Origin: Octopus vulgaris
Lineage: Eukaryota
DNA: 64,000 bases
Assembly: GCA_951406725.2 (NCBI GenBank)
Contig: OX597830.1
Span: forward strand, 9,238,001-9,302,000
Direction: 5' to 3'
Shown: piece after piece, positions 3,946 through 60,050 of the stretch
Numbering within the stretch: position 1 is the first letter of the stretch
Layout of the letters: every line of letters starts with the position of its first letter
The notes under the pieces: generated by a model
What the model was told of the DNA's origin: nothing
The model's database searches: none
What the model saw: only the letters and a program-made list of their open reading frames with translations
Made by a program: the position numbers and the translations under genes

Positions 3946-4029
3946 ATATGTATGTATATATATATGTATGTATATATATATGGAAAAAAGTTAAGGTAGA
4001 AAATGCTAAAACAATTTTATAAAATAACA

Positions 4030-4072
4030 TTTCAGTACCGGTTTCAGTCATTCAAACTTTTTCAACTGTAAA
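4030..4072 (-). ncRNA. Minimal type I hammerhead ribozyme, U3:A8 core variant, in a PLE-like terminus (~3983-4140)
   Basis: Minus strand reads UUUACAG-UUGAAAA-AGU(UUGAAUG)ACU-GAAAC-CG-GUA^CUGAAA. Confidence 0.7.
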
Positions 4073-4674
4073 TATGGAAAACAATTAAATTTTGGAAAAA
4101 TTAAAAAAGCTTTTTAAAAGAATATTCGCATAGTGTTCAAATGCAAGTGGCATTTTCCTTGTTTCTGCCTGTTTCTGTCTCTGTTGTTTACTCTTGTGGG
4201 ATCGATATATATATGTAATAAGATGAACGTTATATATAAATAATTTCTTCTATTTAGTAAATTCAAGCAAGGAAGACGAAAAGAAAAGTATTATTTAGAT
4301 AACTTGTTTTATCTTTCGTAAAATGTGAAAAATCAGTTACAAAGTTTTATATTGTGAAGAGAAACCGAGAAAATATTCTAAAAAGACAAATATTAATAAT
4401 TAAAAGAGATTTACTTCTACTGAGGCAGACAATAATGATAGTTTCGAAAAAAGAAAAAAAATGTCTGCAATGAGATAATGAAAAATAAAAAAAAACAAAC
4501 AAACAAACAAAAACAAAAACAAAACAAAACAAAAGAAACCGAAATAAAAATAACATCTTCTGACCAAGACGCAATAATTTCAAGATTGGAATTTTTGATT
4601 AAAATTTATTAAAATAATTCATCAACAATGAAATTTTCACGATGTCGTAAAGTTCTGTTTTGAAAACTTTATAT

Positions 4675-13923: not shown

Positions 13924-14571
<648 letters not shown>

Positions 14572-21719: not shown

Positions 21720-22757
21720 TATATATATATCTGTGTGTGTGCGTGTCTTTGTGTCTTTGTTTGTCCGCCACCACTGCTTGACGACCGGTGCTGGGTTGTT
21801 TACGTCCCCGTAACTTAATTGTGGCAAAAGAGACCGATAGAATAAATATCAGGCTTAAAATACAAATAAGTACTGGGGTCGATTTGTTCTACGCTAAAAA
21901 CCCCTTCAAGCCGGTGCACCAATATGGCCGCTATCAAACGACTGAAACAAGTAAAACTAAAAGCCAAACGTCGGCCATTAGCACTGAAGTACTGAGTTGA
22001 TTAACGATGAGTCATCCGGCCTAGAAGTAAATAGGTACCATGTGTGCGTATAACCGACTGATGTGTGTAACATGTGCAGTGTAGTAATTAACAAATGCTT
22101 CATTAACTGGTAATTTTCAGTGCAGTACATAATTAACAAGTGGTTCATTAGCTGCTTGTCCTCAGTGCAGTTAATCTTCGCAAGTTGATGACAAATAAAT
22201 AACAAAAAAAAAAGAGGAAAGCGTATAAGGACAGAGCAACGATTGGCTGTCGTTGTTCCAGACGATATACTTCAGTCATTTGAACAGATGTGTTGGCGAG
22301 ATGTAGACAAAATGGCCGCTTTGTAAAACAACAGGTTAACCTACAATTAAGTCTCGTATGGCGTAGATAGTCAGTAACAGCTGTGCGCTTAACGACTTCG
22401 CTAGCTAACTCAAGTTCGAATTTATTTCGCGTAATTTCTGGAAAGCCATACCCATTCAGATGCTTTCTTCACTGCTCTGCCCTAAGATGGCTTCAAGGCA
22501 AAGATTGAAATAAGTAAAAGAAGGTTGTTTGTACATTTTAAATGTACATACACGTAATATCAATCCTTCTGACGTGTTTAAAGCAGGTGACTCCCTAATA
22601 TAACTACATAAGATACTTGGATGGCCTGGACCTATCTTTGACCGAAACATAACTGCTTAGCGCTGTCACACCGTATTTTGCTTACGACTAGTCGCTGAGT
22701 AGCCCAACCATCCACTGAACGATGACGGGAATATTATAAGGGGGACCTGACCTTCAT

Positions 22758-24921: not shown

Positions 24922-24983
<62 letters not shown>

Positions 24984-25172
24984 AAAATAGTAAAGTGTGA
25001 AAAAACGACAGAAGGCTTAAATGTTAAAAAAAATATATATTTGTGTCAAAATGTCTGGAGAATATTGGAAAAAATTTTTTCCTTTCCTTAAAATGACATA
25101 ATTTTAAAATTTTTAAAGAAATTACCGGTTTCGCGTGTAGCTTAAATCATTAAATCATTAAATCATTAAATC

Positions 25173-25679
25173 ATTAAAAGCTACAAACAGCCTAAATCAC
25201 TTAAAAAGATTCTCACAAAGGCAAAATTGTCTTCTAAAATTACGGATGCAAAAGTAAAAAAATGTGGTAGATCGAACTGTGCAACATGTCCTAACCTATT
25301 GGAAGGATCAGAATTCTTCTTTAAAGAGGGACAGAAATTCAAGATCAAATCTAACTTTACTTGTGCCTCTGAAAACATAATTTATGTTATTAAATGCTCG
25401 GGCTGCCACCAAGACTACGTGGGTTCCACGGGACTATCACTCAGGCGTAGATGCACACTGCATCGACAACAGATTGCATTCCCAGAATATAGAATGATAC
25501 CTTTTAGTGAGCACATTGAGAAATGCGCAAAACAACTACTGCCACAATTTTTAATCTTCCCATTTTACCAATGTGCTTTCGGATCATCAACACAAATGAG
25601 ACTGAACAAGGAAACATTCTTCATTGAAAAGTACAAACCCAGACTCAACCATCCGAACATACTGACACAGAGAAATTAA
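25173..25679 (+). pseudogene. C-terminal GIY-YIG endonuclease domain of a PLE ORF (RT part lost)
   Basis: Open frame IKSYKQPKSLKKILTKAK...KKCGRSNCATC...FTCASENIIYVIKCSGCHQDYVGSTGLSLRRRCTLH...RLNKETFFIEKYKPRLN*. Shows the Cys-rich linker, IIY/YVG motifs and conserved R, H, E, N typical of Neptune-clade PLEs. Confidence 0.9.
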
Positions 25680-25814
25680 CAAGGAAAAGGGAAAAAAATT
25701 TTTAAGCGATTATCTCCCTTACACCGGAAGAAATCACTCACTACCTCCCCTTATTTAGAAATCTCCTGAAAATAAACACAACGATAACTCCATGCAATAT
25801 AAACATAACGTCAC

Positions 25815-25854
25815 AAGAAATTTGAAAAGCTACACGCGAAACCGGTAATTTCTT
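25815..25854 (+). ncRNA. Minimal type I hammerhead ribozyme, U3:A8 core variant
   Basis: AAGAAAU-UUGAAAA-GC(UACAC)GC-GAAAC-CG-GUA^AUUUCUU: 7 bp stem I, palindromic ACCGGU stem III, located in the PLE 3' UTR. Confidence 0.75.
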
Positions 25855-26007
25855 TAAAAATTTAAAAATTATGTCATTTTAAGGAAAGGAAAAAAATTTT
25901 TCCAATATTCTCCAGACATTTTGACACAAATATATATATTTTTTAACATTTAAGCCTTCTGTCGTTTTTTCACCCTTTACTATTTTCTTATATACCAAAC
26001 AAACTTT

Positions 26008-26089
<82 letters not shown>

Positions 26090-42621: not shown

Positions 42622-43020
42622 TCTTTTCTACTTTAGGCACAAGGCGTGAAATTTGGGGGAGTAGGATAGTCGATTTACATCGACCCCGGTGCTTCACTGA
42701 TATTTAATTAATCGACCCCGAAGAGATGAAAGTCAAAGTCGACCTTGGCGGAATTTGAACTCAGAACGTAACGACAGGCGAAATACCTATTTCTTTACTA
42801 CCCACATGGGGCTAAACACAGAGAGGACAAACAAGGACAGACACACGGATTAAGTCGATTATATCGACCCCAGTGTGTAACTGGTACTTATTTAATCGAC
42901 CCCGAAAAGATGAAAGGCAAAGTCGACCTCGGCGGAATTTGAACTCAGGACGTAACGGCAGACGAAATACCGCTAAGCATTTCGTCCGGCGTGCTAACGT
43001 ATCTGCCAGCTCGCCGCCTT
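42622..43020 (-). mobile_element. SINE family A dimer (a + strand copy lies at ~42320-42530)
   Basis: Two tandem units with GAAATACCTATTTCTTT junction. Confidence 0.9.
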
Positions 43021-43044
43021 AGTAATGATAATGATAATTATTAT

Positions 43045-43545
43045 TTTTTCCTATATCACAGGTTTTGTTGGAGCTCCTGGAATCGTGCGGGCTTACTACC
43101 TGCAGCCTACAGTACCATGCTATCCATTCTTTCCAGCTTTCTAATACTTTCCTGATTATTCTGCCCGTGCAAAGGAGGCAAGCCTTTTGTAACAGTTCTA
43201 CCAAGCACTCTATTCCAGTTTCCATTATATTCTTCTTGATGCCTTCTGATACTGTTCCCAAGAACCCAACAATAATTGGCACTGCCTTCACCTTCTTCAT
43301 TTTCCATAGCTTGGCTATTTCCTTCTTCAGAGGGTTCTATCTATCTATCTTTTTGCCTTCCTTCTTGACTATTCGTGGGTCAAGGAGGGATACAACGTCA
43401 ACTACATAGCATATATGGTGCACCTTGTCCATCACCACTAGGTCCGGTCTGTTATACTCTAGCACCTTGTCTGTTTGGATTGGGAAATCCCAGAGGATTT
43501 TGCTAGTCTCCGAATCTGCCACTCTCTGCGGTTTGTGCCCATACC
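43045..43545 (-). mobile_element. 3' end of an R4/Dong-like non-LTR element (restriction-like endonuclease)
   Basis: KILWDFPIQTD...NRPDLVV...VVDV...KKIDR and VPIIVGFLG...LLQKACLL...IIRKVL; ends in (AAT)n-like sequence. Confidence 0.85.
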
Positions 43546-52621: not shown

Positions 52622-53527
52622 TTATCTAGTTTAAGCTCACAAGCTGTGGCCATGCTGGGGCACCGCTATTTGGTGTTGCTACATGATTCTACTTCACGAA
52701 TGCTTTTTAGCAATTGCCATTTGGTGCATGAGAGAGTTTGATGCAGCTGCCCTCATCTGCCGTGAAGTTGGTTCATCTGAGACACCTGACAAGAAGAGAT
52801 CCAATTTTAATTTAAAGACATCTGCATCCACCCCATGCAAGTCTCTTAGGTTCTTCGGAGGATATTTGGAGTCCTTGGCACTATGCAGTGGCGCCCAGTT
52901 CTGGCATTTGTGTAATTCTCGATGCCAAAGTTTGGGACAAGTCCTTCTAGGATCTTTCAGATGTATATTACGGCATATCTTTCTCGCCTACGCTCTAAGG
53001 AATAGAGTCTCAATCTCTTGAGTCTTTCCCAATAGCTTATATGCTGCACAGAGGCTATCTTCTTCGTGTAGCTTCGTTGGATCGCCTCAAGTTCCGTGAT
53101 TAACTTCACACTGGATGGTGACCATAGCTGAGAGCAATAGTTAAAGTGGCTTAGGACAAGTGTCCTCCAGAGGACCATCATGGTTTCCTGGTCTCTTGTT
53201 CTAAAGGTTCTAAGAATCCATCCGGTCAGCCGCCTACATTTCATTGCGAATTTAGCAACATGCACGTGAAAAGTTGCATAATCATTCATGTAAATACCCA
53301 GGTCTCGCACTGACTGTGCCTCTGGGATTGCAATCCCTCCAGGTCCGGTGTATTTATTGGGTATTGCATTTAGTTTTGCATGCTGATAGCATAAAGCTTG
53401 AAACTTTTTCAGCATTGAACTGCATGCTATTCTTTTCAGCCCACTTATATATTTTGTCCAGCTCACATTGCAGGTGCTTAGTGTCTTCAGGGTTCTGTAT
53501 TGCCTGTGAAACTTTTGTATCATCTGT
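52622..53527 (-). mobile_element. 5'-truncated CR1-group LINE (RT C-terminus plus 3' UTR)
   Basis: ORF 52957-53523 VRDLGIY...WILRTF...YCSQLWSP...LEAIQR...YWERLKRLRLYSLERRRER; (TA)n on both sides. Confidence 0.9.
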
Positions 53528-53571
53528 ATATATATATATATAAATATATATATTTATATATATATATATAC

Positions 53572-53632
<61 letters not shown>

Positions 53633-53652
53633 GTGTGTGTGTGTGTTTGTGT

Positions 53653-53890
53653 GCGTGGCTTAGTGGTTAGGGTGTCAGCACCATGATTGTAAGATTGTGG
53701 TTTCGATTCTTGGACCGGGCGACGCGTTGTGTCCTTTAGCAAAACACTTTATTTCACGTTGCTCCAGCCCACGCAGCTGGCAAAGATGAGTAATGCTGCC
53801 ATGGACTGGCGTCTCGTCCAGCTGGGGAACACATACGCCATAGAAACCGGGAAACCGGGCCCATGAGCCTAGCTAGGCTTTAAAAGGGCG
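53653..53890 (+). mobile_element. SINE family C, alternative tail (copy also at ~56977-57213)
   Basis: Same head and central domain, tail GATGGACTGGCGTCCCGTCC...AAGGGCG. A third tail type occurs at ~10560-10856, 35905-36200 and 48368-48680. Confidence 0.85.
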
Positions 53891-57891: not shown

Positions 57892-58064
57892 TCTTTTATT
57901 CTTTTACTTGTTTCAGTCATTTGATTGCGGCCATGCTGGAGCACCGTCTTAAAGAGTTTTAGTCGAAGAAATCGACTCTATGACTTATTGTTTGTAAGCC
58001 TAATAATTATTCTATCGTTCCGACTCTACCCAGCTGAAAACTGAGCGTTTGAACCAAACATATA

Positions 58065-59294
58065 CGAGGGGTACTCAAAAGTAACCGGAAACGTTCTTTG
58101 TGAGACAAGCTCATTGTAGTTCAGGCTTTCGCCGCTTGATGCGACCTTCAGATATCAGTTTGCTGACCAAAGTCGTCAACTGATGTCGTAGTTCCACGTG
58201 ATGCGTCTTTCTTTCGCAGTGTTTCTCCCCTATTCATCGACTTTGTGATGCATCGATGAAATTCTGTTTTCTGCTGGGGAAAATGGCTGCCAAAATAACC
58301 GTCATGCTTCAAACAGCTTACAAGGACACTGCTATGAGCAAATCACAAATTTACGTGTGGTCGCTTGTCGCTTCAAGACCAACCTCGATCAGGATCTCCC
58401 GAACGAATGGAAAGATCATGAAAGTTCATGAACTCATCTTGGGGGACAATCATCTAACAAGTGACGAACATGTTGATATGACTGGTGTGTCTTGGACCTC
58501 CTACCAACGAAATTTGAGCTATGTCTTTATTGCCCACAAGGGGCTAAACGTAGAGGGAACAAACAAGGACAGACAAAGGGATTAAGTCGATTACATCTAC
58601 CCCAGTGCATAACTGGTACTTCGGAATTTGAACTCAGAACGTAACGGCAGACGAAATACCTATTTCTTTACTACCCACAAGGGGCTAAAGACAGAAAGGA
58701 TAAACAAGGACAGACAAACGGATTAAGTCGATTATATCGACTCCAGTGCATAACTGGTACTTATTTAATCGACCCCGAAAGGATCAAAGGCAAAGTTGAC
58801 CTCGGTGGAATTTGAACTCGGAACGTAACGGCAGACGAAATACCGCTGAGCATTTCGCCCGGCGTGCTAACGTTTCTGCCAGCTCACCGCCTTCAACGAA
58901 TTTTGAACGAGGAATTGCGAATGAAAAGAGTTGTAGGGAAATTTGTGCCTCGCTTGCTCACAGAAGATAATCAGCAGTCACGGCTGAATGCGTGTCGTGA
59001 ACTGAAAGACCAGTTGGAGATTGACCCGGATATTTTTTACGAAGGTCATCACTGGTGACGAAAGCTGGTGCTATGGAATTTGCAGAAGTGGAAGAGACAA
59101 AGAAAAAAAAAAAAATGATGGAGGCGTTAAAAGGCATCACTTCGCGAGAGTTCCAGCACTGTCTCGAATTGGGGAAAACGCGTCGGAACCGATGCAAGTG
59201 GAGAATACTTTGAAGGTGATAAAAGTGTAAACATGTAAAACTAAGTGAACAGAATAATATTGCAAAATTCCGGTTTCTTTTGGGTACCTCCTCG
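58065..59294 (+). mobile_element. Internally deleted mariner element with nested SINE
   Basis: TA|CGAGGGGTACTCAAAA...TTTTGGGTACCTCCTCG|TA; fragments KFCFLLGK..MLQTAY, KFVPRLLT, VITGDESWCY. Confidence 0.9.
58518..58893 (-). mobile_element. SINE family A dimer inside mariner
   Basis: TSD CAACGAA(A/T)TTTGA at 58505-58517 and 58894-58906. Confidence 0.9.
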
Positions 59295-59416: not shown

Positions 59417-59696
59417 AAATTAATTAAGGGTAGAAATTGATATTTATCAATTAAGACCAGTGGTCTAGCATATTAAAAAAGAATCCGAAGATTAAAATAT
59501 TTATATATACCAATTAAGGACTGAACACGAAAAGTGGACAGTCAACATGCTAGATATAGACGTCAAATCGCCATTCTCCACAAAAGATTATGTTCTCAGA
59601 TCAAAGATCTGAGAACATAATCTTTTGTGGAGAATGGCGATTTGACGTCTATATCTAGCATGTTGACTGTCCACTTTTCGTGTTCAGTCCTTAATT

Positions 59697-59698
<2 letters not shown>
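59415..59698 (-). mobile_element. Second copy of the same fold-back family, 93 bp arms
   Basis: Near-identical to 14137-14324. Arms 59510-59602 and 59606-59698 with a 3 nt loop (AAA). Confidence 0.9.

Positions 59699-60050
<352 letters not shown>

Follow-up and report, generated by a model that had tools for sequence, protein, structure and literature searches.

Hammerhead motifs and a Penelope-like element in the window

The window, the whole 64,000-nt stretch of DNA analysed here, is AT-rich (GC 0.27–0.43), contains many microsatellites and has the appearance of animal non-coding DNA; its short repeats resemble those of octopus genomes. It holds a 5'-truncated frame of a Penelope-like element (PLE) (25170–25679, +; 169 aa), which comprises a CX2-5CxxC linker (residues 32–40) and a GIY-YIG endonuclease and is followed by a 3' untranslated part, or pseudo-LTR (25680–25994, +), with a minimal type I hammerhead motif inside it (site 1; 25815–25854, +). 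Upstream of the frame lies an inverted partial copy of 25827–25994 (24976–25143, −; 168 nt, 97.6%), which begins at about A8 of the motif and thus lacks U3–N7. The insertion is flanked by (TA)n tracts on the left (24925–24981) and on the right (26010–26062). With its inverted partial repeat, (TA)n flanks and GIY-YIG frame, the surroundings of site 1 show the arrangement described for PLE insertions truncated at the 5' end: Neptune and Nematis PLEs are reported to possess a C-terminal GIY-YIG domain, a CX2-5CxxC linker, 5' truncation, an inverted partial copy, microsatellite flanks and a pseudo-LTR hammerhead (Craig et al., 2021, PMC8557442). This PLE context was absent from an earlier, sequence-only reading of the window. 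Four 8-nt repeats at the junction of the inverted copy and the truncated frame (25142–25173, +) resemble the element's own coding sequence at the truncation point, which suggests that slippage during insertion made them.

The 169-aa frame matches the Pfam GIY-YIG model weakly (E 0.004, below cut-off), and 3,712 representative proteins match it at E up to 0.001. It is 74% identical to P0002, a protein with RT plus GIY-YIG, and the copy is young (99% protein identity to P0001). The frame corresponds to the C-terminal end of the protein; the full-length homologues P0002, P0003, P0005 and P0006 have precomputed RT domains upstream, and the window copy has no RT. The linker cysteines are C32, C37 and C40, and residues C76, C79, H98 and H115, which show little or no variation across 41 sequences, would make up the CCHH motif as it is described by Craig et al. 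(2021, PMC8557442).

In site 1, a 7-bp stem I (25815–21/25848–54) precedes the core TTGAAAA (25822–28), with U3 at 25822 and A8 at 25827. A 2-bp stem II (25829–30/25836–37) with a 5-nt loop follows, and the 3' part consists of GAAA (25838–41), the palindromic CCGG (25842–45), U16.1 (25846) and A17 (25847), after which the cut is predicted. Positions 10.1/11.1 are G-C, and position 9 is not followed by an extra base. U3 lies 143 nt past the stop of the frame and 173 nt past endonuclease residue 160. A second minimal type I motif (site 2; 4029–4073, −; predicted cut after 4036) has the same core at 4065–59 (U3 at 4065, A8 at 4060). Its stem I is 3 bp by strict pairing (4068–66/4035–33) and longer with one bulge, its stem II has 4 bp including one G-U, with A-U at 10.1/11.1, and its 3' part reads GAAA (4045–42), CCGG and UA (4037–36). 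A TA-rich microsatellite lies some 55 nt downstream of the motif. In both sites the U3:A8 core conforms to the hammerhead rule N3-UGA-N7-N8-A9, GAAA, U-H, with positions 3 and 8 pairable.

Helices I and II of both sites appear in the minimum free energy (MFE) folds, with the ends meeting in helix I. The ACCGGU duplex, a short palindromic helix III capable of forming between two molecules, is worth −8.3 kcal/mol; it is part of the MFE cofold of site 1 and absent from that of site 2, which is not the active dimer. The MFE z-scores of the two sites are about zero (−0.37 and 0.09). Searching Rfam with 25700–25960 at E up to 10 yielded five matches with no hammerhead family among them, and no hammerhead occurs among the 150 listed of 455 matches for the whole window; in both searches the matches listed are of a low-complexity miRNA type.

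No direct second copy of site 1 or site 2 exists in the 64-kb window, which thus lacks the head-to-tail units, each with a hammerhead, expected of a non-LTR retrozyme, an element built from tandem non-coding hammerhead repeats. The regions around sites 1 and 2 have no blastn match to each other and therefore represent different families. Near site 2, no remnant of PLE coding sequence or endonuclease was detected by tblastn or by an HMM of 156 homologues. Exact site 2 patterns are found in none of the viral contigs and none of the metagenome contigs, two collections from which the host may be missing. Site 2 is likely a solo pseudo-LTR of a second PLE family.

The two motifs exceed chance. They are the sole window matches when a descriptor for a short helix III leaves positions 3 and 8 unconstrained; among 300 dinucleotide-shuffled windows, a relaxed descriptor found one hit in 13 and a strict descriptor one hit in two, and neither found two hits in any, the expectation being 0.007–0.04 such hits per shuffled window against 2 observed. 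Anatomy and shuffles thus agree with the sequence-only reading, in which the two sites, with different stems I and II, share UUGAAAA and GAAAC-CG-GUA. A covariance model was trained only on the 10 C3:G8 relatives described below, without either site, its training motifs having been picked by a descriptor resembling that which found the two sites; of its 18 window matches, the highest score belongs to site 2 (30.3 bits) and the next to site 1 (20.0 bits). As decoys we reused a loose core-word scan of viral contigs, whose hits are chance matches (both stems are present in one of 109 distinct matches to the bare core words), and searched 100 of the 122 viral loci, picked for the same core words. 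Site 2 scores above all 100, the best of which attains 25.2 bits, and three of them reach 20 bits, as high as site 1.

Might site 1 be real and site 2 resemble a hammerhead by chance, or be a fragment of a short repeat that is abundant? The 3' tail of this repeat, seen at 21944 and 56934 (+) and at 57914, 51099, 49633, 45455 and 39514 (−), consists of a small stem followed by GAAAC-NN-GTA and resembles the 3' half of a hammerhead with no 5' core, so that stem, GAAAC and GTA would already be supplied; moreover, three of nine tail-like sites tested have 12 consecutive letters in common with site 2. The strict stem I of merely 3 bp, the lack of a nearby coding remnant and the single chance hits in 0.7–4% of shuffled windows point the same way. 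However, the likeness to the tail ends at 12–18 nt, and the upstream body and A-rich tandem tail of the repeat are absent at site 2, which is also the top model match above every decoy searched and, like site 1, has its end close to a TA-rich microsatellite. We consider this explanation of site 2 quite unlikely. The resemblance of the repeat tail to a hammerhead 3' half may itself be chance, or the tail may have been borrowed from a PLE repeat.

A third hammerhead candidate (site 3; 59767–59821, −) has a canonical C3:G8 core and GUA, with 8 bp in stem I and 3 bp in each of stems II and III, and is the third window match of the covariance model (19.7 bits). It has a true helix III and occupies one arm of a 145-nt palindrome (59745–59889; 71-nt arms, 94%) that lies close to (TA)n tracts and is likely a miniature insertion derived from a PLE. 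With a wider descriptor, the window holds three hits with C-G or U-A at positions 3 and 8, as against 16 single hits of this kind among the 117 hits in 300 shuffles. A fourth match, at 972 (−) with A3:U8, was rejected as chance given those 117 shuffle hits. Because a C3:G8 candidate lies in the same window, U3:A8 is a trait of element families rather than of the host as a whole; the lineage-level variant proposed by the sequence-only reading stands for the former and fails for the latter.

Other features of the window deserve mention. Two inversions break in or at the hammerhead core, at 25143 (site 1, about position 8) and at 59819–59825 (site 3, about positions 3–5), which may reflect stalling or switching of reverse transcription at the motif, with two cases only to go by. 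A near-perfect palindromic element occurs in two copies (59497–59711 and 14218–14529; 96–98% over 106–109 nt), the arms of the latter enclosing a further inverted segment, and neither copy has a hammerhead hit. Decayed transposon-like frames lie at 52957–53659 (−), 43019–43336 (−) and 58202–58585 (+). Two of the three resemble LINE RT tails, with no Pfam RT match to either, and one of the three has a weak Pfam match to a mariner-type HTH.

U3:A8 as the family state of site 1

The site 1 element is present in at least 20 of 24 listed sequencing runs from 12 studies, and no RNA run holds it among the matches listed. Contig pieces from four of the holding runs (organisms A, B, C and E) were mapped to 25640–25975 at 80% likeness. 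The 3,144 mapped pieces show substitutions that reach 2% of depth at 21 places in 336 nt, none of them in 25795–25863, in a mapping where contigs drop rare variants and pieces less than 80% alike are excluded. All four runs contribute depth at the core, which is spanned by pieces among those listed. At positions 3 (25822) and 8 (25827), no other letter attains 2% in the four runs; X1 is possibly the run of the source sample, and the remaining three agree with it. Taken alone, the absence of variation across the 40-nt motif is not significant (P = 0.064).

Variation within the motif is limited to two losses of a single base, one in loop II, seen in each of the four runs, and one at 25847, seen in three, one contig each. 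In runs X1 and X4, loose ends behind 25846 start with C and continue like the arm of stem I, which may represent a GUC subfamily.

Because other letters stay below 2% at positions 3 and 8, U3:A8 is the family state at site 1 and not decay. It could be argued that sites 1 and 2 are independently decayed copies of a CUGAAGA family, as an AT-rich genome commonly acquires C-to-T and G-to-A transitions and the relatives found are all C3:G8. The absence of any other letter at 2% or more at 25822 and 25827 in four runs contradicts this at site 1, as does the youth of the copy, and we regard such decay as highly improbable. The sequence-only reading had named a CUGAAGA family consensus as evidence against its proposal; the contig pieces of the four runs give a different consensus at site 1, and for this site its preference for a variant over decay is borne out by the family state.

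C3:G8 relatives and covariation

A metagenome scan recovered 25 loci with related endonucleases, among them L123–L143, whose endonucleases are 40–48% identical to the window frame; neither viral contigs nor prokaryote genomes contained a related locus. With positions 3 and 8 free, 14 hammerhead hits were obtained in 12 of these 25 loci, 11 of them distinct, all with C3:G8 and none mismatched. The remaining 13 loci include four with less than 80 nt after the match, one (L137) that ends inside an apparent motif, three weak protein matches and five in which none was found. Nine of the 14 hits lie 146–200 nt past the endonuclease match, a range that includes the 173 nt of site 1. The GAAAC-CG-GU string is carried by 7 of the 11 distinct hammerheads; because these are C3:G8 motifs, it is clade-wide and not tied to U3:A8.

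Two further observations concern the architecture of these hammerheads. U-U replaces the usual G-C at 10.1/11.1 in 6 of the 11 distinct motifs and also in site 3. The closest structural match to site 1 is L131:2459–2496 (−), with C3:G8, a 2-bp stem II and GAAAC-CG-GUA; it stands inverted beside the repeat of another family.

Ten relatives and the two sites were aligned (alignment A4), with one weak hit (L123:1323) and three duplicates omitted. The 3:8 pair is C-G in 10 and U-A in 2 of the 12 motifs, with no mismatch, in keeping with the earlier claim that C3:G8 to U3:A8 is a compensatory double change. Nine of 10 pairs vary on both sides and the inner pairs of stem I covary; with the structure set by hand, the covariation score is 0.576 versus 0.04–0.13 for slid controls. 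In a tree of the endonuclease only (28 rows; loci with fewer than 100 aligned residues and L144–L147 omitted), the window frame groups with P0002, P0003, P0004, P0008 and P0010 (support 95/91), and the nearest relatives (57–74%) are known as proteins alone. We infer that C3:G8 is ancestral and U3:A8 derived.

A bolder reading, to which we assign a distinctly low probability, is that one sub-clade of PLEs in this host moved to U3:A8 independently of flukes and kept it across families with fully diverged stems, its sister elements in the same genome having retained C3:G8. If true, the swap would be a repeated, selected tuning of cleavage rate, by way of a U3-G8 wobble step such as the acorn-worm motif with U3 and G8 in Fig. 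S3 of Cervera and De la Pena (2014, PMC4209133), and would supply a natural panel in which to study the purpose of the PLE ribozyme.

Predicted cleavage and comparison with known hammerheads

Site 1 is very probably a minimal type I U3:A8 hammerhead in the 3' pseudo-LTR of a 5'-truncated PLE, site 2 is likely a motif of this kind that another family left behind, and cleavage after GUA, as dimers, is predicted for the two. Helix III would be unable to close within one molecule, so two motif copies in a tandem transcript would pair via the self-complementary ACCGGU. The paired copies would cut after A17, slowly, and trim the precursor RNA, and the element's own protein may assist. The U3:A8 pair would be a compensatory change from C3:G8, carried along by a spreading AT-rich family. 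The genomic copies at sites 1 and 2 are probably inert relics, since site 1 lacks both an RT and an intact partner in its vicinity. According to published work, PLE hammerheads whose helix III is short and palindromic probably cleave as dimers alone, and at a slow rate (PMC4209133; reviewed in PMC6765202), and the hammerhead of an Anolis PLE needs the element's protein for its cleavage (PMC11167929).

Alternatively, U3:A8 may be fixed in the family while the ribozyme is dead or vestigial, the motif being a structural or protein-binding element or a hitchhiker and the 3:8 pairing an accident of AT bias. Stem II of site 1 has only 2 bp, conservation of the motif is not significant, metazoan PLE hammerheads are described as having very low in vitro activity (PMC4209133), and cleavage by the Anolis hammerhead is dispensable for in vitro insertion (PMC11167929). 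An accident of composition sits poorly, however, with a pair kept at both changed positions, twice in the window and again in two fluke families, with stems that covary across relatives, and with shuffle hits that are mostly unpaired at positions 3 and 8 (16 of 117 have C-G or U-A). We judge a dead ribozyme unlikely, though the least so of the alternatives; the function that the sequence-only reading assigns to the variant is putative.

The U3:A8 variant is not new, and the novelty implied by the sequence-only reading does not hold, as the core has been published both in PLE hammerheads (PMC4209133) and in natural hammerheads, in several of which C3/G8 covary to U3/A8 (Perreault et al., 2011, PMC3088659). 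According to the latter work, position 3 pairs with position 8 when the fold is active, and earlier studies cited there found U3/A8 variants active in vitro. In Schistosoma, hammerheads of Cercyon PLEs carry U3-A8, with about 1,300 hits that the descriptor used first had missed (Cervera and De la Pena, 2014, PMC4209133). The same experience confirms the earlier point that CUGANGA searches miss U3:A8 motifs. In a literature search that had most subscription papers and Repbase/Dfam outside its scope, no report of PLE hammerheads in the octopus group was found, the sole paper to come up being Craig et al. (2021). The import of the present findings is modest: another animal lineage is added to those in which a U3:A8 family of PLE hammerheads is abundant, the undercounting of PLE hammerheads by descriptors limited to CUGANGA, already published, is seen again, and U3:A8 and C3:G8 motifs in one genome provide a convenient matched set for kinetics. 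Neither the chemistry nor the kind of element is new.

Among known systems, the window motifs are close to those of the Cercyon families Sm3 and Sm4 of S. mansoni in the supplement of Cervera and De la Pena (2014, PMC4209133), which share the U3-A8 swap, the location in PLE terminal repeats and the occurrence mostly as single motifs; the heptamer UUGAAAA of the Fig. S3 entry S. mansoni (4) is identical to that of the window sites. In contrast to Cercyon, where helix III is the 2-nt minimum, the window motifs have a 4-nt palindrome, comparable to the shrimp, fly and mosquito variants in that paper. Their stem II is also shorter (2–4 bp) with no extra base after position 9, and host and element family differ. 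The combination of G10.1-C11.1 with, often, such an extra base is frequent but not required in PLE hammerheads (PMC4209133). Compared with the U3/A8 hammerheads of Perreault et al. (2011, PMC3088659), the covariation is the same, although the natural examples there are apparently not placed in PLEs. The site 1 element shares the layout of Neptune and Nematis PLEs (PMC8557442), an assignment made from endonuclease, linker and flanks rather than from an RT phylogeny. Also close are the C3:G8 hammerheads of L123–L143, which occupy the same position beside the endonuclease and carry GAAAC-CG-GU as frequently as stated above, but differ in the core pair.
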